64,000 bases of DNA from an uncultured Clostridia bacterium (lineage in GTDB: Bacteria; Acidobacteriota; Aminicenantia; UBA2199), in assembly GCA_964633415.1 (NCBI GenBank), contig CAZWFY010000009.1, positions 7,389 through 71,388 on the forward strand, read 5' to 3'. A program made the position numbers and the translations under genes. Under the pieces are notes generated by a model. That model did not search any database and was not told the DNA's origin. It worked only from the letters and a program-made list of their open reading frames with translations. How positions within the stretch are numbered: the stretch's first letter is position 1; each line of letters starts with the position of its first letter. Below are positions 6,657-22,242 of the stretch, piece after piece.

Positions 6657-7607
6657 TTAATACAATTTCTCTAACTTATACTCATAAGGAATAAACATTC
6701 GATCCTTTTTTCTCCCCAAAAATTCCAGAAGATGCTGACCGCAATTACTTCCTATTCTATTCTCTTCCAATTCTCCCACACTTTCGATTATTGAAAAGCC
6801 AGCGGATCTTAATTTTTCAATCTTTTTCGATAATTCCGTTTCCCGGGAAAGATCAAGAATATTGTCAAGTCTATTTTTAACGGCAGTCCTTGTCGGATTT
6901 ACAGGAGTTAATTTAATCAAAAATATTTCAGGATTAAAAACATCTTCAATAATCTCCGGCAAAAAAGGTGTATCCCTTGATATGGCAAAATTAAGAGTTA
7001 TCTTTCTGTCACCGTGATTATAAAAACTATTCCCATATTTTGCAATCTCTCTCAGACTCCATTTTTTCACAGGAATAGCTATATCTCTGTATTTTTCCGA
7101 TGTAGAATGTACTGAAAACTGCATTTGGAAATTACCATCTGCGTATAAATCTTTTTTTACACTAACAAGGTTCGAAAAAAAATTGTTACAACCGACTGGA
7201 GCAACTGTAGAAATGCTTGGTAAAAAACCCGGAGCTTCATAGTGATTATTAAAATTCTTTAATACATTCAATACCGAAGTATTGAATGCCGGTTCACCCA
7301 TTCTTGCAAACTGAATTTTAAACTTTTTTACATTTACCTTTAAGTCCGGGAATCTTTTGCGAATAAGAAAATCTATCTGAGAGAAAATCTCCTTTTCAGA
7401 AAGTTTCCCGTTATAATAAGAACCGGCATCACAAATAGGACATCCGACCGGACATCCGAATAAAGTTGAAACAATCAGAACCCATTTTTCGGATCTTTCT
7501 AATGGAGGCTGTAGAGACTCCACAAACTCCAAATATTTCCCTGACTCCATCTTTGCAATATATACGGTAGCTATATCTTCATTTCCGGATTTAAATAGTA
7601 TTTTCAT
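6657..7607 (-). CDS. Radical SAM enzyme, RlmN/Cfr-like fold
   Basis: GCPVGCPIC is CxxxCxxC. MGEPAFN, FSVHSTS, KLTPVNPTR and IGSNCGQH align with RlmN MGMGEP, ISLHAPN, IPWNPFPG and DAACGQL. The position of the RlmN Cys118 equivalent is Phe. Confidence 0.6.
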   Translation of the reverse strand: MKILFKSGNEDIATVYIAKMESGKYLEFVESLQPPLERSEKWVLIVSTLFGCPVGCPICDAGSYYNGKLSEKEIFSQIDFLIRKRFPDLKVNVKKFKIQFARMGEPAFNTSVLNVLKNFNNHYEAPGFLPSISTVAPVGCNNFFSNLVSVKKDLYADGNFQMQFSVHSTSEKYRDIAIPVKKWSLREIAKYGNSFYNHGDRKITLNFAISRDTPFLPEIIEDVFNPEIFLIKLTPVNPTRTAVKNRLDNILDLSRETELSKKIEKLRSAGFSIIESVGELEENRIGSNCGQHLLEFLGRKKDRMFIPYEYKLEKLY

Positions 7608-9369: not shown

Positions 9370-9831
9370 ATGAAAAATTGTGAAGAGATACTTATTGAAA
9401 AAGGTACAAATATGATATTTGTAAAAGATGATGTCAATATAGATGAAGCCGTCAGAATTATGCTTAAAAACAATATCGGGGCAATTCTCGTAAAGAGAAA
9501 TGAAGAGGTGATCGGTATTTGGACGGAGCGTGATCTTATGAGAAATATTACAATGGACAATTTTGATCCGAAAAAAGCAATAATCAAAAATTATATGACA
9601 AAAAATCTGATTTCAGCTCTTTCCACTGATAGCGTATATAATCTTATGGATAAATTTCTCGGGAAAAGATTGCGTCATCTTCTTATTGAAAAAGAGGGCA
9701 AATATATCGGTCTTCTTTCAATCGGAGATGTCATAAAAGCAACATTAAGAGCAAAAACCGAAGAACTCAACGAATTAAAAGCCATGGTCAGTTGGGATTA
9801 TTATGAAGATTGGGGGTGGCAGAAGAAATAA
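9370..9831 (+). CDS. CBS-domain pair protein
   Basis: Two CBS-like units (GAILVKRNEEVIGIWTERDLMR and RHLLIEKEGKYIGLLSIGDVIKA). Confidence 0.7.
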   Translation: MKNCEEILIEKGTNMIFVKDDVNIDEAVRIMLKNNIGAILVKRNEEVIGIWTERDLMRNITMDNFDPKKAIIKNYMTKNLISALSTDSVYNLMDKFLGKRLRHLLIEKEGKYIGLLSIGDVIKATLRAKTEELNELKAMVSWDYYEDWGWQKK

Positions 9832-9833
9832 AA

Positions 9834-12368
9834 ATGATTAAAAAAACAAATTCCAAACTATTGTTTTTTTCTATCCCAATTATAGTGATATTGCTTTTTT
9901 TCATTGGGAAAAACTTATTGTTTGTTAAAAAAGCAGGACATGGAATGAATGTAATTCTGATAACCGTGGATACACTCAGAGCCGATCATGTCGGAGTTTA
10001 TAATAAAAATGAAGAGAGCATTACACCGAATATTGACAAACTTGCCGACGAAGGAGTTATCTTCAAACATTGTATAGCTCATACCCCTTTAACTCTTCCT
10101 TCTCACGTATCTATTCTTTCCGGAACATATCCTCTGTATCACCAGGTTAGAGATAACGGCAGTTTCATTGTTCCTGATGAGTTGAAATTTATCAGTGAAA
10201 TATTTAAAGAAAACGACTATTCCACTTCAGCTTTCATTGCTGCATTTGTTCTCCATTCAAAGTGGGGGCTCGCTCAGGGATTTGATACTTATAGTGATGA
10301 TTTTGATCTTTCACTCTATAAAACCGTCTCACTAAGTAAAATCGAATTTAAAGCGGAAAAAGTTTTTAACAATGCAAAAAAATGGATAAAGGAGAATAAA
10401 AAAAATAAATTTTTTTCATGGATACATCTTTACGATCCACATTATCCCTATTCTCCCCCATCCCCTTTTCTTAATAAATACAAAAAAGATCTTTACAAGG
10501 GAGAGATCGCATACACCGATTCTATGATTGGAAAATTCATAAAATTTTTAAAAGATGAAAATATTCTTGATAATACAATTATTATTTTAACAGCAGATCA
10601 CGGAGAAGGAAGAGGTGATCATAAAGAAGACAATCACGGTTTCTTCATTTACGAATCCGTTATACATGTGCCGGCTCTGATCAGAGCTCCTTTCAAATTC
10701 CATGTAAAAAATTTCACCCAAACGATAGGTCATGTTGACCTGATGCCTACGATTCTCGATCTTGTCGGTCTCCCGATTCCCGACTCATGTCAGGGAAGAT
10801 CACTCGTGAATGAATTAAACGGGGAAAAAGCAGTAAATGAAATTACATATACGGAAACATATTATCCTAAGTTTCATTATGGATGGTCGAATTTAAAAGC
10901 TCTCTATTCCGGTAATTATAAATTTATTCTTTCACCGAAACCCGAGCTTTTTAATATTTCCACCGACAGGAATGAATCTGATAACATCTATTTTAAATAT
11001 TTTAATCAAGCCGGAAAGATTAAAAAACAGATGGAAATTTTTATAAAAAAGTTTTCAGAGAACAGAATATCTCCGATAAAGAACAATAAAATGAACACTG
11101 CCGATATGAAAAGATTTAAATCTTTAGGATATCTTTCAGGAAGTATAAAGATTGATAACAAAACACCACTTGCAGATCCGAAGGAAAAGTTTTTTATTGT
11201 TAAAAAAATCAAAAACGCTATGAGTTTTGTCAAAGCAGGTGATCTGGATTCTGCAACAAAACTGGTTATGGAGATACTCGGAAATGACAACCGGATAATT
11301 GACGCTCACGTTGTTCTCGGGAACATCTATGTTGATAAGAGCAATTATAAAGAAGCTTTACAATGTTTTAACAGAGCAATGAAATTAAAACCTCACTATA
11401 ACATTATAATGGGCAATGTGTTGAATTGTTATATAAAATTAAAAATGTATGATGCCGGCATAAACAGGGGGATTGATTTTTTAAAGATTTTCCCGAGAGA
11501 TGCAACGATCCTATTGAAACTCGGTGAATTCTATTTTTTAAAAAAAGAGTATAAAAAGTCGGAAAAATATTTCACTAACTCTTTGGAACAAAACCATTTT
11601 AATTCAAAAGTTCTATTCCGCCTTGCTGAAATAAATATTATAAAAAACAATAAGAAAAAAGCCAAAGAATTTATAGAAAAGATAAAAAACATTAAACCTG
11701 ATCATAAAATGCTTCCATATCTTTATATAAAGCTCAATCTTTTGGAAGGAAATCTATCCAAGGCAGTTAAACTGCAGGAACAAGAGATAAAAAACAATCC
11801 TCTGAACGCCGATTCGATTTATAATCTCGGATTGCTTAATCTTAGACAAAATAATCATAAGAAAGCCCTTGGAAACTTTTTTTCCGCAAAAAAACTAAAT
11901 CCCGGACTGAGAGGACTTAATTTGAGAATTGCACAAATCCTCGGACGTAGAGGTAACCATAAAAAAGCTGAAAAATATTTAAGGGAAGAACTCAAGTATT
12001 TTCATAATTCAATTCCTGCTTACTATGGTCTGGCAATTGAATTATATCAACAGAGAAGATTAAAAGCTGCAGTTATAAATTTCAAAAAGGCTATTGCTCT
12101 CAAACCTGATTTTGTAGATGCTCTTTTTAACCTCGGAGTTGTTTTATCCGAAATGGGGGAAAAAAAAGAGGCTATATCATATTTCGAAAAACTTATCATG
12201 ATGAAACCTAAAGATATCTATGCAAGAATAAAACTTGGAGAGTTAGTAAGAATAACCGACAAAAAAAGAGCATTATCTCATTTCAAAATCGCTTTAACAC
12301 TGGCAATTGAAAAAGGGGACAAAGCATTAATTAAAAAAATAAAAGCATGGATCTCATACCTCAAATAA
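9834..12368 (+). CDS. Membrane-anchored sulfatase-fold (alkaline phosphatase superfamily) enzyme fused to a C-terminal TPR domain
   Basis: Metal-site motif NVILITVDTLRADHVG. The site equivalent to CxPxR reads HTPLTLPSHVSILSG. N-terminal TM. About 350 aa of TPR repeats at the C-terminus. Confidence 0.75.
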   Translation: MIKKTNSKLLFFSIPIIVILLFFIGKNLLFVKKAGHGMNVILITVDTLRADHVGVYNKNEESITPNIDKLADEGVIFKHCIAHTPLTLPSHVSILSGTYPLYHQVRDNGSFIVPDELKFISEIFKENDYSTSAFIAAFVLHSKWGLAQGFDTYSDDFDLSLYKTVSLSKIEFKAEKVFNNAKKWIKENKKNKFFSWIHLYDPHYPYSPPSPFLNKYKKDLYKGEIAYTDSMIGKFIKFLKDENILDNTIIILTADHGEGRGDHKEDNHGFFIYESVIHVPALIRAPFKFHVKNFTQTIGHVDLMPTILDLVGLPIPDSCQGRSLVNELNGEKAVNEITYTETYYPKFHYGWSNLKALYSGNYKFILSPKPELFNISTDRNESDNIYFKYFNQAGKIKKQMEIFIKKFSENRISPIKNNKMNTADMKRFKSLGYLSGSIKIDNKTPLADPKEKFFIVKKIKNAMSFVKAGDLDSATKLVMEILGNDNRIIDAHVVLGNIYVDKSNYKEALQCFNRAMKLKPHYNIIMGNVLNCYIKLKMYDAGINRGIDFLKIFPRDATILLKLGEFYFLKKEYKKSEKYFTNSLEQNHFNSKVLFRLAEINIIKNNKKKAKEFIEKIKNIKPDHKMLPYLYIKLNLLEGNLSKAVKLQEQEIKNNPLNADSIYNLGLLNLRQNNHKKALGNFFSAKKLNPGLRGLNLRIAQILGRRGNHKKAEKYLREELKYFHNSIPAYYGLAIELYQQRRLKAAVINFKKAIALKPDFVDALFNLGVVLSEMGEKKEAISYFEKLIMMKPKDIYARIKLGELVRITDKKRALSHFKIALTLAIEKGDKALIKKIKAWISYLK

Positions 12369-12450
12369 AATATTGCAACAAGAACAGGATAAAATCACTT
12401 GACTATCAGATTTAATATTGATAACATCAAAAAATATCTATTTACCGGAA

Positions 12451-12936
12451 ATGAAAATGAAAAAATATATATTTATAGGAATAACGATTCTGTCACTGTT
12501 TATCTTTTCCATCTCATGCAAAAAAAAATTCGGTGAATTCAATCTTCAGCAACTTTCCGGAAATATAGTCTATAATGCCGTAAATAACACCTCTTCTCTT
12601 CAACTTCAGGTAAAAGGAACTACATTAAATTATATTAAAGGTTCATTTAAAAAATGGTATTTTGTTATCTACAACAGCGATAATGAAGAATTGTTAAAAA
12701 TTTCAGATGAAAACTATATGAATATCAGTTCCGATATAGAGGTTCAAAAAACAGATGTAGATCTTTACTATGATGGATTTCTGATTGTTAAAACAACAAA
12801 GAATATTCCCGGAGACATATTAAACGGGGGAACTCCCGACAGACTGTTATTAAGATGTACAATAGAAGATCAGTATGGAAATAAAACCGAACATGTTTTA
12901 ATGGGTCTTGTCCAGTATTTTAAAATCGAATTTTAA
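12451..12936 (+). CDS. Hypothetical lipoprotein
   Basis: MKMKKYIFIGITILSLFIFSISC signal peptide with lipobox Cys. No family recognised. Confidence 0.45.
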   Translation: MKMKKYIFIGITILSLFIFSISCKKKFGEFNLQQLSGNIVYNAVNNTSSLQLQVKGTTLNYIKGSFKKWYFVIYNSDNEELLKISDENYMNISSDIEVQKTDVDLYYDGFLIVKTTKNIPGDILNGGTPDRLLLRCTIEDQYGNKTEHVLMGLVQYFKIEF

Positions 12937-13183
12937 TTTAAACACAATCGTTGTTTAATAATCCGTTAACTTTTACTTCGGAATTAGGAAAAAGAATTCA
13001 AAATAATGAATAAATAGTCACCTATAATCCAAAATATTGATTTTTTTTTTACAACAAAATATCAGATCTTAAGCAAATCCAATGATATCTATAATATACA
13101 CTAATTACACTTGGAAATTTATTTTGGTATGAAACTTGCATTTATATATTGTGTTTAAAAAAAAACAATAAAAAGGAGGATTC

Positions 13184-16100
13184 ATGAAAAAGATTGTGTT
13201 ATTTATTTTTGCAGTCACACTTCTGGTTTTTCTTGGAAATAATATCTATTCCCAAGAACAATCCGGAGAGGTTATCGGAACTGTCGTATTAGAAGACGGT
13301 TCTGCTATTCCCGGAGTTCTTATCGAAGCAAGCGGTAAGAATCTGATAGGAAAGAAAACTGCCGTTTCCGATGAAAACGGAGCTTTTAGAATTCTGGGAT
13401 TACCCCCGGGAGAGTATAACTTTGTTTTCACACTTGAAGGATTTAAAACCTACAAGAGAAACGGAGTAACGATAGTTCTCGGAAAAACCATTAAACTGAA
13501 CATCGTAATGGAAACGGGCGTTATAAAAGAAGAGGTGGTTGTTTCCGGAATGGCACCGGTTATTGATGTCAGAAACAGTGCGGCTGCCGTAAACATCTCC
13601 AAGGAAGTTTTCCTCAAACTCCCCAAGGGACGTGATTTTACAAGTCTTATTGTAACTCAGGCAGGAGCAAATAATGAAAACATCGGTGGCGGACTTCAGA
13701 TGGAAGGTGCATCAAGTTCAGAGAACACTTTTTTTGTTGACGGTGTTAACACGACAACAATAGAAGGCGGAGTTTCCGGACAGAACATCAGCTATGACTA
13801 CATTGAAGAAGTACAGACCAAAACTACCGGTTATAATGCAGAGTTCGGCGGATCAATGGGTGGAGTTGTAAATGTAATAACGAAGAGTGGTGGTAATGAA
13901 TTCCACGGCGATCTGATCACATATTTCAATGCGGATTTCCTTAATGGAGAACCGAGAGATTCTCTAAGATTAAATCCTATTGACAGTACGAAAGCCGAAT
14001 ATTTTCATTATCCGAAAGACAAATATACTTCCATTGAGCCCGGTTTTTCTCTCGGCGGTTATCTGATAAAGGATAAAGTTTGGTTCTACGGAAGTTTTGT
14101 TCCGAGATTATTCAAACAGACAAGACAAGTAGATGCTATCGGACATCCGGAAGCAGCCGGAAAAGAGTATTCATACACGAGAACTTATTTTAAGGGATCG
14201 GGAAAAATTTCAGCGGCAATCACACCAAAACTTAGATTAACATTGTCGGGAACTCTTGATTCGCAGGAAGTTAAAAAAACACTTCCTCCTCAGTCAGGAT
14301 CATTTAATCCAAACGCATCCACATATGAGGATTACGGTTATAAGTATCCCGGACTGACACTTGCAGCAGGAATTGACTGGTCTATCGGAGATAACTCTTT
14401 CCTGAATGTTCAGGGAGGATATTTCCGTACAAATGCATACAGCACGAATATTCCTGAAAATGTACCGACAAGATTACGTCATATATATTCAAACTATGAT
14501 ATTCCGGGAATGCCGGATGATCTTAAAGTTCCCAGAGGATACTCAAATGTAGGATGGAGTGATATCTATCTTGATACAAAAAATATCGCAAGAAAAGTTT
14601 CAGCTAAAGCCGACTTCACAACTTATCTGAATGCAGGCGGTGAACATGTAATTAAAACAGGTTTCGGATGGAACCAGTTGTTCATGGATAAGAGTCAGGG
14701 TATCAATACACCTTACTGGGCTTTCTATTGGGGCAAATCCATCTATACAAAATTAGACGGTACCGTTGTTCCGGTAAAATACGGTTATGCAAGAGAACTC
14801 GGACCTTACGGAACAATTGCAGATGCAACAAGCAACAGATTTTCCTTCTACCTTCAGGATAGTTGGACAATTAAAGATAAGTTGACGATAAATTATGGTG
14901 TCAGACTTGAACAGGAAGAGATTCCTGCAATGGCTAAGGGTCATCCTACAGCTTTTGAATTTAAGTTTTTTGACAAGATCGCACCGAGATTCGGTTTTGC
15001 ATATGATATGAAAGGCAACGGAAAAACAAAGCTTTTCGGTAGTGCCGGAATCTATTATGATGTTATGAAACTCGACATGGTCGCCGGTTCTTTCGGTGGA
15101 TTAAAATGGGAAGATTCATGGTATGAAATCGTAAATCTTGACTGGAGACTTTATGACGGTCAGAAAGGATGGAGTTTTACAGGTTCAACCGATCCTATCA
15201 ACGGCGGACAGTTCTTAGAACATAAGAACCACAGAATCCCATCATTTGATACTATCCAACCGGCAGACTCAATGAAACCCATAAGCAAGATGGAGGTTTC
15301 TCTCGGATTTGCCCAGGAATTAAGCAACAACCTGGCTTTTACATTAAGAGGTTCATACAACAAAATGCTTCAGACTATCGAAGATATCGGTGTTCAGACT
15401 CCTTTGGGAGAAAAATACTTTATCGCTAATCCCGGTAGTGATTGGATAAATGCAAAGTATAAAGAATCCGGTGATGCAGGACTTATGCCTCCGGGAAGGA
15501 AATGTCCGGCTCCTAACAGAGAATATTATTCTCTTACATTCCAACTTGATAAAAAATTCTCAGATAACTGGTTGGGTGGTGCTTCATTAACCTTAAGCAG
15601 ACTTACAGGTAACCATTCGGGTCTTGCAAGTTCCGATGAATACGGAAGACATAATCCCGGTGTTGAAAGATATTGGGATCTCTGGTTCTTTATGTATGAT
15701 TCACACATGAAAGAAGTTATCGGACTGCTTCCGACGGACAGACCGATGGATTTTAAATTCTACGGAGCATACACCTTTGATTTCGGTCTTACAGTCGGTT
15801 TTAACGGTTATGCAAAGAGTGGAACTCCATTGTCAACCGAATTCATGCTCGACAACCAGCAGGGATGGTATCCGAACGGTAGAGCCGACCTCGGAAGAAC
15901 ACCATTCATCTGGCAGATCGATTCTTACATTGAATACACATTAAAGCTCGGTAAAGCTAATCTTCAGCTAAGTGCCAATATCTCCAATCTCACAAACAAC
16001 AATATCGCAAGAAGAACATACACTCGTATTTATGACGCAGCCGTATATCTCAGTGATTCGGAAATCGCACAGGGTTTTGATGTTGATACCGTCATGAAAT

Positions 16101-16192
16101 CTCTGGGACTTGAACGTGACCCGAGATTCTTGATGAATCATACTTTCCTTCCTCCAATCTCAATCAGACTCGGAGCTAAAATATCATTCTAA
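13184..16192 (+). CDS. TonB-dependent outer-membrane receptor (CarbopepD_reg-like domain + plug + beta-barrel)
   Basis: AAGGAGG RBS. Signal peptide. GTVVLEDGSAIPGVLIEASG...ENGAFRILGLPPGEY is a carboxypeptidase-regulatory-like domain. Plug FFVDGVNTT...GGVVNVITKSGGNEFHG. C-terminal ...GAKISF ends in an aromatic residue. Confidence 0.8.
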   Translation: MKKIVLFIFAVTLLVFLGNNIYSQEQSGEVIGTVVLEDGSAIPGVLIEASGKNLIGKKTAVSDENGAFRILGLPPGEYNFVFTLEGFKTYKRNGVTIVLGKTIKLNIVMETGVIKEEVVVSGMAPVIDVRNSAAAVNISKEVFLKLPKGRDFTSLIVTQAGANNENIGGGLQMEGASSSENTFFVDGVNTTTIEGGVSGQNISYDYIEEVQTKTTGYNAEFGGSMGGVVNVITKSGGNEFHGDLITYFNADFLNGEPRDSLRLNPIDSTKAEYFHYPKDKYTSIEPGFSLGGYLIKDKVWFYGSFVPRLFKQTRQVDAIGHPEAAGKEYSYTRTYFKGSGKISAAITPKLRLTLSGTLDSQEVKKTLPPQSGSFNPNASTYEDYGYKYPGLTLAAGIDWSIGDNSFLNVQGGYFRTNAYSTNIPENVPTRLRHIYSNYDIPGMPDDLKVPRGYSNVGWSDIYLDTKNIARKVSAKADFTTYLNAGGEHVIKTGFGWNQLFMDKSQGINTPYWAFYWGKSIYTKLDGTVVPVKYGYARELGPYGTIADATSNRFSFYLQDSWTIKDKLTINYGVRLEQEEIPAMAKGHPTAFEFKFFDKIAPRFGFAYDMKGNGKTKLFGSAGIYYDVMKLDMVAGSFGGLKWEDSWYEIVNLDWRLYDGQKGWSFTGSTDPINGGQFLEHKNHRIPSFDTIQPADSMKPISKMEVSLGFAQELSNNLAFTLRGSYNKMLQTIEDIGVQTPLGEKYFIANPGSDWINAKYKESGDAGLMPPGRKCPAPNREYYSLTFQLDKKFSDNWLGGASLTLSRLTGNHSGLASSDEYGRHNPGVERYWDLWFFMYDSHMKEVIGLLPTDRPMDFKFYGAYTFDFGLTVGFNGYAKSGTPLSTEFMLDNQQGWYPNGRADLGRTPFIWQIDSYIEYTLKLGKANLQLSANISNLTNNNIARRTYTRIYDAAVYLSDSEIAQGFDVDTVMKSLGLERDPRFLMNHTFLPPISIRLGAKISF

Positions 16193-16228
16193 GCTCATAA
16201 CTGAATAAATCAGTTATAAAATAAAAAG

Positions 16229-16263
16229 AGCCCTCTTGTTTGCACAAGAGGGCTTTTTTTTTA
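16229..16263 (+). terminator. Rho-independent terminator (11-bp GC-rich stem agccctcttgt/acaagagggct, then a T9 run)
   Basis: Perfect inverted repeat followed by a poly-T, read directly 37 nt after the receptor stop codon. Confidence 0.75.
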
Positions 16264-16487: not shown

Positions 16488-17510
16488 TTATTTGGCTCCT
16501 TTAAGACTATCAACAACAGCTTTAATACCGTCTGCTTCCGGAGATTTCGGATCCAATTTAAGAAATTTTTTAAAACTTTCAACAGCAGATTTGATATCAC
16601 CCTTATTAAGATAAGCATAGCCAAGCTTTAAATATGGTACTGACCATTTCGGTTTTATTTTAGATGCTATTTTATAATACTTGATTGCACCTTCGGAGTT
16701 ATTGTTACCAAAATAGATCTCTCCTACATTATATGCAAGGATCTCATCTTTAGGATTCATATTTATCGACTTCATAAAATATTCCTGCCCTCTCTTAAGA
16801 TCATTCTTCTTAACCAAAACCTCACCTATTCCCGCAAGAGATTTTGCTTTAATCTCAATTCCGTCTCTATTTTCTTTAGCATTTTTTATTACCGATTCAT
16901 ATTCGGTTATTGCTTTTTCATACTCTGCTTTTTCCTTGAAACATTTACCTATATAAAAATGAACCTGATATATATCAGGATGCTTATCGGCAAAATTTTG
17001 AAATGAAATAAGAGCTTTATCATATTTTTTTTCTTTTAAGAGTTTAATCCCCTCATCTATTGATTTTACATCCGATTTCAATTGTTCCGTAGCTATCTCT
17101 TCCACTGACTTTTTTAAAACCATCTTAACATCACGGTTTTTGTTCATTGTAAAAACTTCGAGACTTTTTGTGGCAGGAGAATAATTTTTATAAGTAACTG
17201 TAATTTTCCAGTAACCGTATCCAAGCGTTGAAAAGATCCATACTCCTTTTTTGTTTGTAACAGTGCTGAAAACCCGTCTGTTTTCTTCTTTAATAGGAAT
17301 TATCTCAGGTTTACTCCCCGATTTCTTAATTGATCCGATCAATTGAATTTCCACATTTGCTCCGGAAACGGGAGATTTGTCTTCAAAAAAAACAAACCCT
17401 TTCAGTCTGCCTTTACCTACTCCTGTTTGTGAATAAGCAATCTGGGATAGTAATAAAATCCCGGATATCATAAAAATAAGAAACATTTTTTTTTGTAAAT
17501 TCATTATCAC
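16488..17510 (-). CDS. Secreted TPR-repeat protein with N-terminal CarbopepD_reg-like domain
   Basis: Signal peptide. GRLKGFVFFEDKSPVSGANVEIQ beta-sandwich-like N-terminus. At least four TPR-like repeats (YQVHFYIGKCF..., AYNVGEIYF...). Confidence 0.6.
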   Translation of the reverse strand: MIMNLQKKMFLIFMISGILLLSQIAYSQTGVGKGRLKGFVFFEDKSPVSGANVEIQLIGSIKKSGSKPEIIPIKEENRRVFSTVTNKKGVWIFSTLGYGYWKITVTYKNYSPATKSLEVFTMNKNRDVKMVLKKSVEEIATEQLKSDVKSIDEGIKLLKEKKYDKALISFQNFADKHPDIYQVHFYIGKCFKEKAEYEKAITEYESVIKNAKENRDGIEIKAKSLAGIGEVLVKKNDLKRGQEYFMKSINMNPKDEILAYNVGEIYFGNNNSEGAIKYYKIASKIKPKWSVPYLKLGYAYLNKGDIKSAVESFKKFLKLDPKSPEADGIKAVVDSLKGAK

Positions 17511-17531
17511 TCCTAAAATTATATATAAAAT

Positions 17532-18503
17532 TTAATTTTTTATCGCAAATTTTATTTTTTTTCTTGTCTCTTTATTATCTGTATGGTTCTTGAGTATTAC
17601 TGTCATAACATATTTTCCCTGTTTTAAATCTATTGGAAATTTAATTGTATAATTATCCGACATATCATCCAGGTCCTTTTCAGTCAGCCTTATCTTAAAC
17701 TCTCTTTTTTTCACAATTTCCTTTTTTGTTTTCATTCTTACTATTTTCAAAGTCACTCCTATTGTGGTGGTATTATAAAGCCCTCCTTCCTCAGGTGTAA
17801 AAGAGATCGTAGAAAATGGAATAGTGAGTGAAAGTAATATTTTACCCTTGGACTTTTTATTCAACTTAATATTAAAATCCATAGGGATTTTTTCTCTGGA
17901 CACTTTAGGTTTAAGCATAATTCCAACAGTATTTAGCATTCCGATCTGTCTGGCACTGATCGGTGAAATTTTAAAATCATTTATTTGAAAATAATCAACA
18001 AAAATCACAGGAAAATTACCATACAACCAGACAATATGAGGATATGAATCTAAGGGTCTTTCTCCTGATCGAGAATAAATTTTACCCTGATAGAACCTTC
18101 GTTGGGACGGAGGTCCCAATATCATGTATATTCTTCCTCTATCTGTTTTCCATCCGCTTTTTTTCCCATTCCTGAAATATTTGTTGGCATATCTCATTCT
18201 GTTGTAGTATTCGGTTTTAAACTCATTCTCTTCCGTTCCGGGATCAGGATCTCTTTTTTCCCAGAACTCCTTTTTGAAAATCTCACGATCTTTCTGATTT
18301 GTCAGCGATAAGAATTTTTTCCTTTCCTGCTTTGTTATTATAAGAGAAACCTCATTCAGAAATATTTTATCATTTTCCGGTAGACTTTTGACAAGGATTC
18401 CGGAGCTGTTACAACCGTTTGTTAATATAAGAGTTGTCAAGAAAAACAAAAAAATAACAAATAAGATATTTCTATTTTTTATCTGCATTTCCATTCCTCC
18501 CAT
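17532..18503 (-). CDS. GWxTD-domain protein
   Basis: GWKTDRGRIYMILGPPSQRRF matches the GWxTD signature. N-terminal signal or lipoprotein-like sequence. The true start may be an internal Met, since 32 nt overlap the next gene. Confidence 0.65.
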   Translation of the reverse strand: MGGMEMQIKNRNILFVIFLFFLTTLILTNGCNSSGILVKSLPENDKIFLNEVSLIITKQERKKFLSLTNQKDREIFKKEFWEKRDPDPGTEENEFKTEYYNRMRYANKYFRNGKKSGWKTDRGRIYMILGPPSQRRFYQGKIYSRSGERPLDSYPHIVWLYGNFPVIFVDYFQINDFKISPISARQIGMLNTVGIMLKPKVSREKIPMDFNIKLNKKSKGKILLSLTIPFSTISFTPEEGGLYNTTTIGVTLKIVRMKTKKEIVKKREFKIRLTEKDLDDMSDNYTIKFPIDLKQGKYVMTVILKNHTDNKETRKKIKFAIKN

Positions 18504-20532
18504 TCAGCTTGTTGATCTTTTCTATTATCTTTTTTTGTTTAGGCATTATCGCAAGGGATTTTTTCCATATTCCGAGAGCTTGATCTCTTTTGCCCAATTT
18601 AAGATAAGCATCACCAATAGAATTTAATATATCAATGTTTGTCCCTGTATAATCAAGAATCTTTCTGAAATATTCTATTGCCTTTTCATAATCTTTTAAT
18701 GCCATAAGCGAATAACCCATAACCTGATAGAAATTATAGCGTTGATTAGTTTTGAGAAATTTTGTTCCGATTGAAATGTTTTTTCTGTGTTGCCCCAATA
18801 AAAAGAGAATCTTACAATAATCATATGCAATTATACTATTCCTTGGATTTTTATAGTAGGATTCTCTTAATATCTTATATCCTTTCAGATAATTTTCGGA
18901 ATTAACATATTGGTTCCCTATTGTATTGGAAATATATGGGTCATTCTTTAAGTTGGATAATGAAATATTCCATGCTCTCTTAATTATTTTATTAAGCGGA
19001 ATTATAAAAGGAACTGTTTCCACAGCGATAATTTTACCTTTAGAGAACAATTTTACTTCAATTTCATAATAGGAAGGTTTGAAACCCTTCAGATCAAACG
19101 AATGGAAAACATTAATATTCTTCGGGAAATTTAAAATTTCCAATTTATTTTTTTTAATAGCAACTAAATCTTTTTTCAATGAAATCAATACATAGCTTCC
19201 GTTATAATCATTCTCATTCATACCGATTATTTGACAATACACATGCAATTTATCATTTTGTGAAAAATCATTTTTAGGAGACATAACCATCTGTTTATTG
19301 TTAATTAAAAACGGCTTGAGTATATTTCTATTATTCTCTTTTATCTCATATGACAGGATAGGTTTCATAATTATAGGAGTTTTAGGATTGGGAATAACAA
19401 CTCTTTTTTCCATAGATGTAAACTCTTTGGAAACAACATTTCTTATTAAAATATTAATATCATATTTTCCTTCGATCAACGGAAACATATCCTGGAAATT
19501 AAAAAGTTTATTATAAATAGATGAAAGTTTTTTTACATCTATTGAAACGGGAACTTTTTTACTGAAACTGTAAACAACCTTTTTATTCTCATTGATAGCA
19601 CTACCTATCACTTCGAGAGTGGAATAGAGTTTGTCATCACGTCTCTCAAGAGAAAGCTTTTTAGGTTCGATCAGATAGTGAACAAAAAATATTCCGTTAT
19701 CATCTCTTATTACACTTATCTTCGAGCTGTTTGGAATATAATTTGTTGAATATTCCACATCTATATACTCTTTATACTTCAACAATTTTGATGCATAAGC
19801 TGTATTTATCCTCTTAGTAGGGGCTTCCACTACTCTTTTCTGGATAAGAATATCGGAAGCCATAGTCGGTTTTCCAAAAGAATTTATATCACCCTCTATG
19901 AGATTTAAGGATACTTTTGCCACATCCGGATCTATTCTAACCAGCTCATTATACGATTTCTTTGTATCACCAGTACTTCCTTTATAATGCATAAGTAGGG
20001 AAGCCGGACCATTTTGAATCGGACTATACAATACATAGTCACCGCTATTATACGGCTTGAAAAAAACAACGTTAAATGCATTAGGAAGCCCGTACTTCGC
20101 AAGCCCCTGATAATACCAGATAACAATCGGTCTCAATTCAGTCTCATGTTCATATCTTAAAATCGATTTCGGCTTACCAAGTGTTATATATATCCTCCCC
20201 ATTTCCGTTTTCCATCCGGGAGTGGGTGTACCTCTTCCGAAAGTATCGGTAGCATATTTCAGTCGTTTATAATGTTCATTTTTATATTCATTGATTATTG
20301 TATTATGATTCGGATCTCTGTTTTTCCAGAAAGCATTGATAAACATATCTCTCTGCAGGTCGGTCTCAAGCATTTTAAAAATTTTTCTTTCAGCCTTTGT
20401 GATTATATAAGCTACATCTTTCTCCAACCATTTTCTATATCTTAAACCGAGTTTATGACTTTTTTTTGCCGGTATTAAAAAATTAACCGAAACAACAAGA
20501 ATAATCAGTCCGAATAAGAATCTCCTTTTCAT
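18472..20532 (-). CDS. GWxTD-domain protein with C-terminal TPR repeats (paralog of the downstream gene)
   Basis: Signal peptide. GWKTEMGRIYITLGKPKSILRYE motif in the same position as in the neighbour. C-terminal TPR-like repeats (AIEYFRKILDY..., ALGIWKKSLAI...). Confidence 0.65.
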   Translation of the reverse strand: MKRRFLFGLIILVVSVNFLIPAKKSHKLGLRYRKWLEKDVAYIITKAERKIFKMLETDLQRDMFINAFWKNRDPNHNTIINEYKNEHYKRLKYATDTFGRGTPTPGWKTEMGRIYITLGKPKSILRYEHETELRPIVIWYYQGLAKYGLPNAFNVVFFKPYNSGDYVLYSPIQNGPASLLMHYKGSTGDTKKSYNELVRIDPDVAKVSLNLIEGDINSFGKPTMASDILIQKRVVEAPTKRINTAYASKLLKYKEYIDVEYSTNYIPNSSKISVIRDDNGIFFVHYLIEPKKLSLERRDDKLYSTLEVIGSAINENKKVVYSFSKKVPVSIDVKKLSSIYNKLFNFQDMFPLIEGKYDINILIRNVVSKEFTSMEKRVVIPNPKTPIIMKPILSYEIKENNRNILKPFLINNKQMVMSPKNDFSQNDKLHVYCQIIGMNENDYNGSYVLISLKKDLVAIKKNKLEILNFPKNINVFHSFDLKGFKPSYYEIEVKLFSKGKIIAVETVPFIIPLNKIIKRAWNISLSNLKNDPYISNTIGNQYVNSENYLKGYKILRESYYKNPRNSIIAYDYCKILFLLGQHRKNISIGTKFLKTNQRYNFYQVMGYSLMALKDYEKAIEYFRKILDYTGTNIDILNSIGDAYLKLGKRDQALGIWKKSLAIMPKQKKIIEKINKLNGRNGNADKK

Positions 20533-20589
20533 TTTTCCTCCTGCACATTCGTTAAAATTATAGCATTATATCTTGAAAAATCAACAAAT

Positions 20590-22242
20590 TCAGTTTGTTT
20601 CGGATGTGATATATTTCATGTCGGATTTATCGGTAAGAAGATCAATAACAGAGATAACACAACTATATTCACCTTCTTTAAATTTAGGAAAATTTATAGA
20701 AATTGAAAATATTCTATTCTCGGATACCAATATTTTCTCATTATCAAATCTTACATTTCCAAAACCATCGGTTATTTTTATATGAATCTTTAGTTTTCCG
20801 AGTTTTTTCTCACCTTCTTTTCTCAGATAAAAACCGTTTATTGAAATTTTTAATTTTTTTTGATTGAAAACAGCATTCAATATTTTTACCGCCGGTATTT
20901 TTTTTTCCATTTTTTTAAAATAATTTTTTATATAATCCTGTCTTATATTGTTATCAAAAACAACTCTATATTTTTCATCGGACGTCACTACTTTTATTTT
21001 CCCCTTTTTATCATCCGAAGGAGAATATGTCAGCATGTATAAAATATCCTTTTTCTTTACAATTTTATCTAAGGATTTTTTAATATTATTGGAGGATATA
21101 AGATCACCGCCTGTTATCCTTGTCAATTCCCTGAAATTATTTTCAATGTCGGTTGAGACTCTTTTATACTCTATATCATTAGAAAGAAGACTGTTTTGGG
21201 TTTTTATAAATATAGTTTGAAAAACCGCACCTACTTTATAAAACAGCTTGGAAATCTGTTTGGTCGGAAAATCCTGACTGACATTAAGCGAGAGATTTAT
21301 CCTTACCAATAAACTTGAAAGGATCTGTGCATAAGATATATCCTCCCCTCTGTCACTTATCCGAAGGTTGTTTATTAGATTTTTCACATAATTAACTATT
21401 TCCCCGGTCGGTTTTAATCTTGGGAACAACTCCATCTGATAAAAATTCACAACCCATTTTTCCCCTTTGATTCTATCGAGATATTGAGCAAAATTATAAT
21501 AACCGTTAATACTGGGAGTCAGATATCTTCTCTTATATTCATTCCATAATTTAAGGTAATCCCCAAGCATTTTTCTTACTTCATCCGCCGGATTAGACCT
21601 TCCTCCTCCCGAAGCTAATTCAGACCTCATTCTGTAAATAATTGTCTTTATCTTCTCAACTTCCGTTACCTGTCTCATTCTTGCTTTTTTACTCTCTTTG
21701 GAGATCATTTTTAATACAAGTTCGAGAATCCTTTTCTTTCCTTTTAAATTATCAAGTATAAAGGTTCTGTTATTGACAAAGATCATCAACCTGTCTCTCT
21801 CTCTTAAAACTTTTTCAAATATATAAGTAACTCCCTCCCTTAGAGATTTGTTCAATTTAGTCGTTCTGAATACGAGAACAAAATATCTTGAAGATTCTTT
21901 TCTTTTCTGAATTATTTCACTGTTTTCTTTAAGATCATCAACAATAATCGTTATACTTTTCCTTTTGATCCAGAAACCGTTGATCTTCTGCAATTTTCCG
22001 TCTTCATACAGTTTAAAATCCCCTTTTTTAAGTTCATCAATAGGTTTCCCTTTATAAAACACTCTTACGGGAACTTCGACATTAACGACGGAAACATTTT
22101 CAACAATTCGCTTCTCTTTTTTTTTAATTGATCCGTATAAACTCAAGGATAAAACAGATATGATCAGCGACAATAAAATAAAGCTTTTTTTTAAGTTAAA
22201 CTTATCTCTTTCCATTTGAGATTTTATACGTATTGCATTCAT
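20590..22242 (-). CDS. Hypothetical membrane-anchored protein, N-terminus resembling VWFA-related (TIGR03436-type) domain
   Basis: Single N-terminal TM. VSVVNVEVPVRVFYKGKPIDELKKGDFKLYEDGKLQKI resembles the conserved start of vWFA-related Acidobacterial-type proteins. The rest is unassigned. Confidence 0.4.
   Translation of the reverse strand: MNAIRIKSQMERDKFNLKKSFILLSLIISVLSLSLYGSIKKKEKRIVENVSVVNVEVPVRVFYKGKPIDELKKGDFKLYEDGKLQKINGFWIKRKSITIIVDDLKENSEIIQKRKESSRYFVLVFRTTKLNKSLREGVTYIFEKVLRERDRLMIFVNNRTFILDNLKGKKRILELVLKMISKESKKARMRQVTEVEKIKTIIYRMRSELASGGGRSNPADEVRKMLGDYLKLWNEYKRRYLTPSINGYYNFAQYLDRIKGEKWVVNFYQMELFPRLKPTGEIVNYVKNLINNLRISDRGEDISYAQILSSLLVRINLSLNVSQDFPTKQISKLFYKVGAVFQTIFIKTQNSLLSNDIEYKRVSTDIENNFRELTRITGGDLISSNNIKKSLDKIVKKKDILYMLTYSPSDDKKGKIKVVTSDEKYRVVFDNNIRQDYIKNYFKKMEKKIPAVKILNAVFNQKKLKISINGFYLRKEGEKKLGKLKIHIKITDGFGNVRFDNEKILVSENRIFSISINFPKFKEGEYSCVISVIDLLTDKSDMKYITSETN

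Follow-up and report, generated by a model that had tools for sequence, protein, structure and literature searches.

A sulfatase-fold protein with a T-x-P-x-H motif and a TPR tail: a candidate threonine-dependent phosphoesterase encoded beside an Oar-type barrel

The stretch analyzed here, hereafter the window, comprises 64,000 nucleotides of contig CAZWFY010000009.1 (GenBank assembly GCA_964633415.1, positions 7,389 to 71,388 of the forward strand), which is deposited under the name of an uncultured Clostridia bacterium, is placed by GTDB within the Aminicenantia (Acidobacteriota; UBA2199), and has a G+C content of about 31–41% throughout. A plus-strand gene at 9834..12368 encodes an 844-aa protein that joins an N-terminal transmembrane (TM) anchor to a sulfatase-fold catalytic domain and a C-terminal array of tetratricopeptide repeats (TPRs), and is followed by genes for a small predicted lipoprotein and an Oar-type barrel. 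Here, we describe the architecture, active site, family and genomic context of this protein, which together suggest that it is probably a threonine-nucleophile phosphoesterase of the alkaline-phosphatase superfamily rather than a sulfatase.

Gene and domain architecture

The open reading frame (ORF) offers two in-frame starts, a TTG at 9810 and an ATG at 9834, and its stop codon ends at 12368. The ATG at 9834 is the likely translation start, since it lies 3 nt past the stop codon of an upstream CBS-pair gene and yields a product (844 aa) matching in length its closest relative (P0121, 845 aa), with which it shares 76% identity over the catalytic domain. Pfam profiles assign aa 39–312 to the Sulfatase family (PF00884; E = 4.2e-45, 154.8 bits against a cut-off of 25) and aa 271–402 to SGSH_C, with a weaker match to Phosphodiest (PF01663) over aa 40–261 that is also above its cut-off (E = 1.1e-15, 58.6 bits; cut-off 23). 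Many Pfam TPR families, including TPR_1, TPR_2 and TPR_8, match approximately aa 460–830. The NCBIfam scan of the protein returned no equivalog at its cut-off and a weak match to YejM (E = 8e-12). A paralog search within the window recovered no second copy of the gene. Looking up the exact protein sequence gave no existing record.

An AlphaFold2 (AF2) model of the full protein, built with 112 homologs, has a mean predicted local distance difference test score (pLDDT) of 88.9 and a predicted template-modeling (TM) score of 0.79, and lays out as a helix at aa 8–35, a globular region at aa 39–410, a linker at aa 411–448, and a TPR region at aa 449–843. The catalytic domain (aa 38–410; 9945..11063) adopts a two-subdomain, S1-sulfatase-like fold, as indicated by both Foldseek and phmmer. 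The TPR superhelix (11178..12365) comprises 23 helices over about 395 aa, as assigned by DSSP on the model and in line with the Pfam matches. A first-pass annotation made from the sequence alone had described the gene as a sulfatase-fold enzyme anchored by one TM helix and fused to about 350 aa of TPRs; the PF00884 score and the S1-sulfatase-like Foldseek matches bear out the fold, a single hydrophobic segment is indeed present, and the TPR fusion stands, with the length of the array revised upward. Between the two domains, the linker (11064..11177) is modeled with a pLDDT of only 64–73, yet its L431-G-Y433 motif (nt 11124–11132) is invariant in a 112-sequence alignment (A1) of homologs with 34–42% full-length identity to the query. 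A second conserved motif, D-P-K-x-K at aa 448–452 (nt 11175–11189, beginning with D448-P-K450), lies near the linker/TPR junction. These could represent a short docking motif or a hinge.

Sequence searches with phmmer against the Protein Data Bank (PDB) placed the query close to S1 sulfatases (7oz8, E = 7e-27), and a phosphonate monoester hydrolase (PMH; 4upk, E = 1.7e-22), with an LtaS-type primase scoring lower (4uop, E = 5.5e-14; aa 34–330). At the structural level, the top 50 Foldseek matches in the PDB were all S1 sulfatases, choline sulfatase or PMHs, and included no nucleotide pyrophosphatase/phosphodiesterase (NPP). Strong matches included 9fo1 (E = 2.5e-19, target-normalized TM-score 0.71) and 4upk (E = 5.5e-17), with 4uph also scoring well.

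A threonine in the formylglycine column

The C/S-x-P/A-x-R formylglycine (FGly) motif is not found in the query, which instead reads T87-L-P-S-H91 (10092..10106, plus strand) at the N-terminus of a helix spanning aa 87–96. In HMMER pairwise alignments to eight solved S1 sulfatases (7oz8, 9ihk, 7p24, 5g2v, 6pt6, 6b0k, 6bia and 6hhm), T87 falls on the FGly Cys/Ser, P89 on the Pro and H91 on the Arg in every case, and the alignments to solved sulfatases revealed no Cys or Ser elsewhere that takes the FGly position. The first-pass reading of this segment as T-L-P-S-H, with Thr and His replacing the Cys/Ser and the Arg, is thus borne out by both translation and the nucleophile column. Across the family, A1 shows no variation at T87 or P89, and 263 of the 266 motif occurrences carry a His at position 91. 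As the pattern that selected these 266 demanded a Thr at 87 and a Pro at 89, the count lends no independent support to those two positions, which the invariance in A1 does. The Thr/His substitution is therefore a hallmark of the family and not a local defect.

Two nearby residues were considered as alternative nucleophiles and rejected, as both positions vary across the family. Of the 266 occurrences, 148 have Cys and 100 have Ala at position 80, indicating that C80 is non-essential; at position 84, the counts are 99 for Thr, 93 for Val and 41 for Ala. The T87 register is the one given by every sulfatase and NPP alignment. The nucleophile sits at a helix N-terminus across the alkaline-phosphatase superfamily. 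As a separate observation, C80 (nt 10071–10073), a lone Cys seven residues ahead of the nucleophile, is retained in 90% or more of close homologs. hhalign places it on a disulfide Cys of MCR-1, for which a C281–C291 disulfide has been reported; no partner Cys is present in the query.

When the 36-aa nucleophile segment was searched alone against the PDB, it returned almost only NPP enzymes, and NPPs also matched the N-terminal 182 aa of the query (E = 1e-4 to 1e-3). Aligned to ENPP1, the query segment L-T-L-P-S-H-V-S-I-L-S-G-T-Y-P-L-Y-H-Q-V-R-D-N matches ENPP1 and ENPP3 at T, P, H, S, I, G, Y, P, H, D and N; the T-F-P-N-H of both enzymes aligns with T87-L-P-S-H91, and their D-N with N108 of the query. 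In the Sphingomonas alkaline phosphatase (SPAP/PhoK), Thr89 is the nucleophile, His93 at +4 ("present in NPP") positions Thr89, and Asn110 at +21, which corresponds to NPP Asn111 and also occurs in PMH, hydrogen-bonds a non-bridging phosphate oxygen (PMC3145672). The spacing of T87, H91 (+4) and N108 (+21) is identical to that of the SPAP/NPP Thr, His and Asn. N108 (10155..10157) is likewise invariant in A1, and its invariance and the ENPP1/ENPP3 alignment mark it as a predicted phosphoryl-oxygen ligand. Judged by these residue correspondences, T-x-P-x-H is the canonical NPP/PhoK nucleophile motif and not merely a degraded C-x-P-x-R.

Metal ligands and remaining active-site residues

Three further motifs complete the predicted active site. 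The first metal-ligand motif, D46-T-L-R-A-D-H52 (9969..9989), is intact, in agreement with the first-pass annotation; it is followed by H198-L-Y-D-P-H203 (10425..10442) and by D255-H256-G-E258…H268 (10596..10637), which combines the second metal-ligand pair with a His in place of a sulfatase Lys. In addition to T87, P89 and N108, A1 is invariant at D46, T47, R49, H198, H203, D255, H256, G257, E258, E265 and H268. The M2-type ligands, D46, T87, D255 and H256, are all predicted from these motifs. The candidate M1 ligands H198, D201, H203 and H268 are conserved, with a spacing that differs from the D-x-x-x-H of NPPs, and a binuclear metal site is possible on this residue pattern.

In contrast, the sulfate-binding Lys/His set of S1 sulfatases is not retained. 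H268 occupies the conserved sulfate-binding Lys column in all five sulfatase alignments that span it, and the His of the "GKWH" motif is lost in either register, being replaced by V139 or by G145, the latter with K143-W144 retained. A fixed mapping of the "GKWH" Lys was dropped as two HMMER alignments disagree, and this Lys may survive as K143. In ARSA, the sulfate-binding residues are K123/H125 and K302, and H268 stands at the K302-equivalent position.

Profile comparison with hhalign linked the remaining residues to phosphoethanolamine (pEtN) transferases, matching the family profile to MCR-1 (probability 91.6%, E = 8e-7) and E. coli EptA (probability 91.7%). Against MCR-1, it pairs D46 with E246, T47-x-R49-A-D-H-V with T247-x-R249-A-D-H-V, H198 with H390, H203 with H395, D255-H256-G-E258 with D465-H466-G-E468, and H268 with H478; in EptA, the D46 motif aligns with E-T-S-R-A-E. 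In MCR-1, E246, T285, D465 and H466 bind Zn1, H395 and H478 contact the phospho-Thr or a second zinc, E468 orients H478, and H395 is essential (PMC5216409).

Family size, distribution and annotation

A word-indexed search retrieved 5,448 matches, and the best 120 clusters were examined. Almost all of these are 760–790-aa Sulfatase+TPR proteins with catalytic domains 43–54% identical to the query, and most derive from metagenome-assembled genomes (MAGs) of Aminicenantes. An exhaustive search of 50%-identity representatives recovered 16,561 clusters at E ≤ 1e-30. The combination of T-x-P-[SA]-H and D-T-x-R-A-D is present in most of the top 150 representatives, and T-x-P-[SA]-H is found throughout the 266 relatives analyzed. 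Following up the distribution of the fused architecture, as the first-pass annotation had proposed, we found that 118 of the 120 close clusters have a TPR tail, as do 109 of 146 representatives at 50% identity. Contigs sampled at one genome per species gave over 599 matches, and the 80 best of these fall in Aminicenantes, Vicinamibacteria and other Acidobacteriota, plus one Methylomirabilota. A tblastn search of plasmids recovered ordinary sulfatases alone, at no more than 30% identity. The query is thus an ordinary member of a very large family already in the databases, where its relatives are named "sulfatase-like hydrolase/transferase", "arylsulfatase A-like enzyme/...TPR" or "tetratricopeptide repeat protein".

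The family has expanded both by head-to-tail fusion, with proteins of 1,317–1,549 aa that hold two catalytic domains (P0122, P0124 and P0125), and by tandem paralogy, with one contig carrying three Sulfatase-TPR paralogs interleaved with barrels (L005, 4393–14811). Pfam scans of the 920–1549-aa relatives revealed just extra TPRs or tandem duplication, with no informative added domains. We also observed many "binchicken" MAG contigs titled "uncultured Clostridia bacterium" or "uncultured Eubacteriales bacterium" that carry the same Aminicenantes-type cluster of Sulfatase-TPR, Oar-type barrel and GWxTD genes (loci L006–L011, L015, L022, L033–L035 and others); these titles look like placeholders or wrong taxonomy.

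PF00884 is already known to hold Thr-bearing non-sulfatases, and the SulfAtlas study criticizes the inclusion of T-x-N-x-E proteins there (PMC5066984), so the general idea of a Thr-bearing non-sulfatase is not new. In the searchable literature, we found no account of this family's NPP-type motif on a sulfatase scaffold, its TPR fusion or its synteny with Oar-type barrels.

Membrane anchor and predicted location

Hydropathy analysis (19-aa mean > 1.6) identified aa 4–35 as the sole segment above threshold, coinciding with the modeled N-terminal helix at aa 8–35 (9855..9938), which we read as a signal anchor. An equivalent hydrophobic segment is present in 101 of 106 homologs, and in 16 of 266 homologs a lipobox signal peptide stands instead, directly ahead of the catalytic domain. 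The single N-terminal helix, the homologs with lipoprotein signals and the neighboring genes for envelope proteins together suggest that the catalytic and TPR domains face the periplasm, held by a one-helix anchor in the inner membrane.

Gene neighborhood and synteny

The two genes that follow on the plus strand correspond to the lipoprotein and TonB-dependent receptor noted in the first-pass annotation. The first (12451..12936) encodes a small predicted lipoprotein, MKMKKYIFIGITILSLFIFSISC, with a lipobox ending in FSISC and no match in Pfam or NCBIfam. The locus of the closest relative (L087) has a 159-aa ORF in the same position, and a homolog was detected in one of the 46 related loci of at least 15 kb that constitute our synteny set. 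The second (13184..16192) encodes a 1,002-aa Oar-type protein, in which a CarboxypepD_reg extension (E = 3e-15) precedes a TonB-dependent-receptor-like barrel (OMP_b-brl_4, E = 1e-27; TonB_dep_Rec_b-barrel, E = 2e-7); it is the single such barrel in the window.

The association of this barrel with the Sulfatase-TPR gene extends well beyond the window. Of the 46 long loci, 40 have a barrel homolog no more than 10 kb from the Sulfatase-TPR gene, and the barrel is the first neighboring ORF in 16 of 42 loci and the second in another 12 (28/42 together). Where the two genes are direct neighbors, the gap between them ranges from –3 to 397 nt. They constitute a conserved gene pair and not a coincidence. 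Within the window, they are probably co-transcribed: a very strong bidirectional terminator-like hairpin with a 17-bp stem and T-runs on both strands (16223..16260) closes the plus-strand unit, and a hairpin search of 9834–16192 found no comparably strong terminator-like hairpin.

The same hairpin sits between the convergent barrel and CarboxypepD_reg-TPR genes. The convergent minus-strand block, annotated with Pfam and NCBIfam, comprises genes for a CarboxypepD_reg+TPR protein (16488–17510), a 323-aa GWxTD protein (17532–18503), a GWxTD+TPR protein (18472–20532) and a 550-aa protein weakly resembling the acidobacterial VWA family TIGR03436 (20590–22242). The GWxTD pair of this block (16488–22242) recurs in 19 of the 46 long loci, mainly in Aminicenantes. 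The full trio is also present in L001 (13371–17539) and L005 (14822–18839), with sizes of approximately 300–340 aa for CarboxypepD_reg+TPR, 310–450 aa for GWxTD and 640–700 aa for GWxTD+TPR. An AF2 model of the 323-aa GWxTD protein (pLDDT 88) gave weak Foldseek matches in the PDB to Ig-like beta-sandwiches (factor XIII barrels; TM-score ~0.25), offering no functional lead. Literature searches on GWxTD, and on Aminicenantes, TonB and sulfatase in combination, brought up no relevant paper.

Unbiased clustering of neighboring ORFs from the fetched loci and the window region yielded the barrel/TPR/CarboxypepD_reg group and GWxTD as the sole recurrent partners; conserved neighbors in this clustering do not include the CBS gene, the 172-aa lipoprotein or the 550-aa VWA-like protein. 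Elsewhere in the window, a 316-aa minus-strand ORF (6657–7607) carries a C-x3-C-x2-C motif (FGCPVGCPICD) typical of radical-SAM proteins, with no Pfam match at E ≤ 1e-3, and an Rfam scan of the window found no family at its gathering score.

Proposed activity and alternative explanations

Taken together, these observations lead us to propose, with a probability of about 0.6, that the protein is an exported, membrane-anchored metallo-phosphoesterase of the alkaline-phosphatase superfamily that uses Thr87 as its nucleophile and is not a formylglycine sulfatase. Our confidence that the enzyme is not a sulfatase and works by Thr-based phosphoryl transfer is fairly high, and this part of the first-pass annotation withstood each of the computational tests applied. 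In the proposed mechanism, D46, T87, D255 and H256 would hold a divalent metal that activates the Thr87 hydroxyl, and Thr87 would attack a phosphate ester to form a covalent phospho-Thr87 intermediate. H91 would position the nucleophile, and N108, along with a backbone amide, would bind a non-bridging phosphoryl oxygen and stabilize the intermediate. H203 and H268 may bind the substrate or leaving group directly or via a second metal ion, with E258 orienting H268 and H198 possibly joining the two histidines. Water would then resolve the phospho-enzyme intermediate. The most likely activity would be that of a phosphodiesterase or phosphomonoesterase. The C-terminal superhelix, with a predicted 11 repeats, might serve as a docking scaffold for partners, and the conserved gene pair suggests that the enzyme could act in the periplasm on phosphorylated cargo passing the Oar-type barrel. 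We hold this functional coupling to the barrel with moderate confidence.

Several points weigh against this proposal. Overall similarity in both sequence and fold is highest to true sulfatases and PMHs, and the enzyme might have a promiscuous sulfatase activity. Further, hhalign to EptA and MCR-1 sets T84, not T87, on the catalytic Thr. This conflict amounts to three residues, or one helical turn, and is settled only indirectly: T87 is taken as the nucleophile because half of the family has Val or Ala at position 84, T87 does not vary, and residue 87 begins the modeled helix. Basic residues lie on both sides of the hydrophobic helix, such that the positive-inside rule alone does not orient it, and the periplasmic topology is one that we infer. 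With regard to the barrel, its match to Plug falls below threshold (E = 0.008; 17.1 bits, cut-off 23.9), and six of the 46 long loci, as well as members such as L002 and L003, have no barrel, with some Sulfatase-TPR genes standing alone. Finally, we found no characterized member of the Sulfatase+TPR family in the searchable literature.

Among the alternatives, the one that survives best is a transferase of phospho-groups, in which an envelope protein or glycan recruited through the TPRs would serve as acceptor and resolve the Thr87 intermediate, as with EptC, PptA, LtaS and OpgB. In its favor, the catalytic residues correspond one by one to those of MCR-1 and EptA, TPR arrays serve in protein recognition, and the neighboring genes encode envelope proteins with TPR or CarboxypepD_reg modules of their own. 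To our knowledge, every characterized transferase of the EptA/LtaS type has a membrane domain of approximately five helices that delivers the phospholipid donor. In contrast, the query and the great majority of its homologs possess a single hydrophobic segment, some homologs have only a lipoprotein signal peptide, and the nucleophile segment is nearer to that of the NPP hydrolases, all of which make this alternative unlikely. The likeness to LtaS and EptA put forward in the first-pass annotation is accordingly upheld at the residue level by hhalign to EptA and MCR-1, whereas the lipid-headgroup transfer it might imply is less likely with a single helix. As the polytopic donor-binding domain of EptA/LtaS-type enzymes is absent, a phosphodiesterase or phosphatase of soluble substrates is the more likely assignment, and we favor a hydrolase over a transferase with moderate confidence.

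A second alternative, which we consider quite improbable, is that the sulfatase-like domain is a pseudoenzyme that only binds a ligand while the TPR array organizes an envelope complex, the protein acting as a scaffold or regulator. Such a role would accord with the loss of the canonical sulfatase catalytic residues, the large TPR domain, and the weak YejM match, given that YejM/PbgA-type domains of the alkaline-phosphatase superfamily are mainly regulators. Nevertheless, the 112 sequences show no substitution of the Thr, any metal ligand, N108, H203, E258 or H268, and the motif recurs in the more distant 50%-identity representatives; such conservation would be unexpected without catalysis. 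A genuine sulfatase with a Thr or a differently modified nucleophile, although in keeping with the S1 sulfatases as best sequence and fold matches and with the public annotation of relatives as "arylsulfatase A-like enzyme", is scarcely credible, since without a C/S-x-P-x-R motif the formylglycine-generating enzyme (FGE) and the anaerobic sulfatase-maturating enzyme (anSME) are unable to make FGly, oxidation of a Thr would yield a ketone (PMC5066984), and neither the sulfate-binding Lys, where H268 stands instead, nor the "GKWH" His is retained.

The preferred reading of a Thr87-dependent phosphoesterase invites a broader and decidedly tentative proposal, namely that the T-x-P-x-H Sulfatase+TPR proteins form an unrecognized major clade of the alkaline-phosphatase superfamily that bridges FGly- and Thr-based catalysis in evolution, act as dedicated partners, in the periplasm, of Oar-type transporters in Acidobacteriota, and belong to an undescribed TPR-assembled envelope system, together with the GWxTD, CarboxypepD_reg-TPR and VWA-like proteins, for uptake or processing of phosphorylated macromolecules. 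Were this so, the bridge clade would unite the scaffold of sulfatases and PMHs with a Thr nucleophile of the NPP type and a histidine set like that of EptA, and the family would offer a natural intermediate between the two chemistries on one scaffold. Thousands of its entries are labeled "arylsulfatase A-like" or "sulfatase", and on residue evidence these are unable to form FGly and are most likely phosphoesterases; if so, inferences on sulfur cycling drawn from Acidobacteriota/Aminicenantes metagenome annotations would be wrong, and phosphorus-cycling capacity would be underestimated. The pairing with Oar-type barrels, which are abundant in Acidobacteria and Myxobacteria and whose cargo is largely unknown, provides a testable lead.

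Comparison with known systems

At the level of the gene pair, the barrel at 13184–16192 shares a CarboxypepD_reg extension and a large barrel with the Oar subclass typified by Myxococcus xanthus Oar (PMC6434023). Of the extension, plug and 22-strand barrel that characterize this subclass, CarboxypepD_reg and the barrel families score above their cut-offs here, and Plug scores below. The study of that protein mentions no such partner enzyme, and a search of its text for "sulfatase", "TPR" and "phosphatase" found none of these terms (PMC6434023).

With the S1 sulfatases and PMHs, the query shares the two-subdomain alpha/beta fold, including the SGSH_C-type C-terminal subdomain and the D...D-[NH] metal ligands, along with the first metal Asp, the D-H-G-E motif, the P-H-x-P histidine, and the x-P-x-[RH]-x-x-x-L-[ST]-G helix. 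It differs in having T87 for the Cys/Ser, His for the motif Arg, H268 for the sulfate-/phosphonate-binding Lys, and Thr47 for the second metal Asp/Gln, and it adds a membrane anchor and a TPR array. The FGly nucleophile of the PMHs (S1_0) is similarly absent, a Thr standing in place of the FGly precursor.

The NPP/PhoK enzymes share the T-x-P-x-H-x-S-I-x-[ST]-G-x-Y-P-x-x-H-x-x-x-D-N segment with the query. Unlike theirs, its global fold and C-terminal subdomain are sulfatase-like, and an NPP-type fold is not its best structural match, with the Sulfatase profile far outscoring Phosphodiest (154.8 versus 58.6 bits). The bimetallic zinc core of NPPs uses Asp, His and His at M1 and Asp, Thr, Asp and His at M2. 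Where NPPs employ D-x-x-x-H ... H as M1 zinc ligands, the query has H198-x-x-D-x-H203 ... H268 instead.

The EptA/MCR-1/LtaS-type enzymes share the [DE]-T-x-R-A-D-H-V motif, a Thr nucleophile, D-H-G-E-x9-H and the His pair. The catalytic set of the pEtN transferases (E246, T285, D465, H466, H395 and H478 in MCR-1) is found in the query, in a register that places T84 on T285. In contrast to the five-helix membrane domain of EptA and MCR-1, the query has a single hydrophobic helix, with hydrophobicity confined to aa 4–35 and the catalytic domain beginning at aa 38, and it has, in addition, a C-terminal subdomain of the sulfatase type and a TPR tail.

The query displays all features of the Sulfatase+TPR T-x-P-x-H family itself: an anchor or signal peptide, the DTxRAD, TxPxH and DHGE-x9-H motifs, and C-terminal TPRs. 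Because its global match is to sulfatases and PMHs, its nucleophile segment is NPP-like, and its remaining residues match pEtN transferases, the active site can be read as a mosaic on a sulfatase scaffold that unites an NPP-type nucleophile helix with an EptA-type histidine set.

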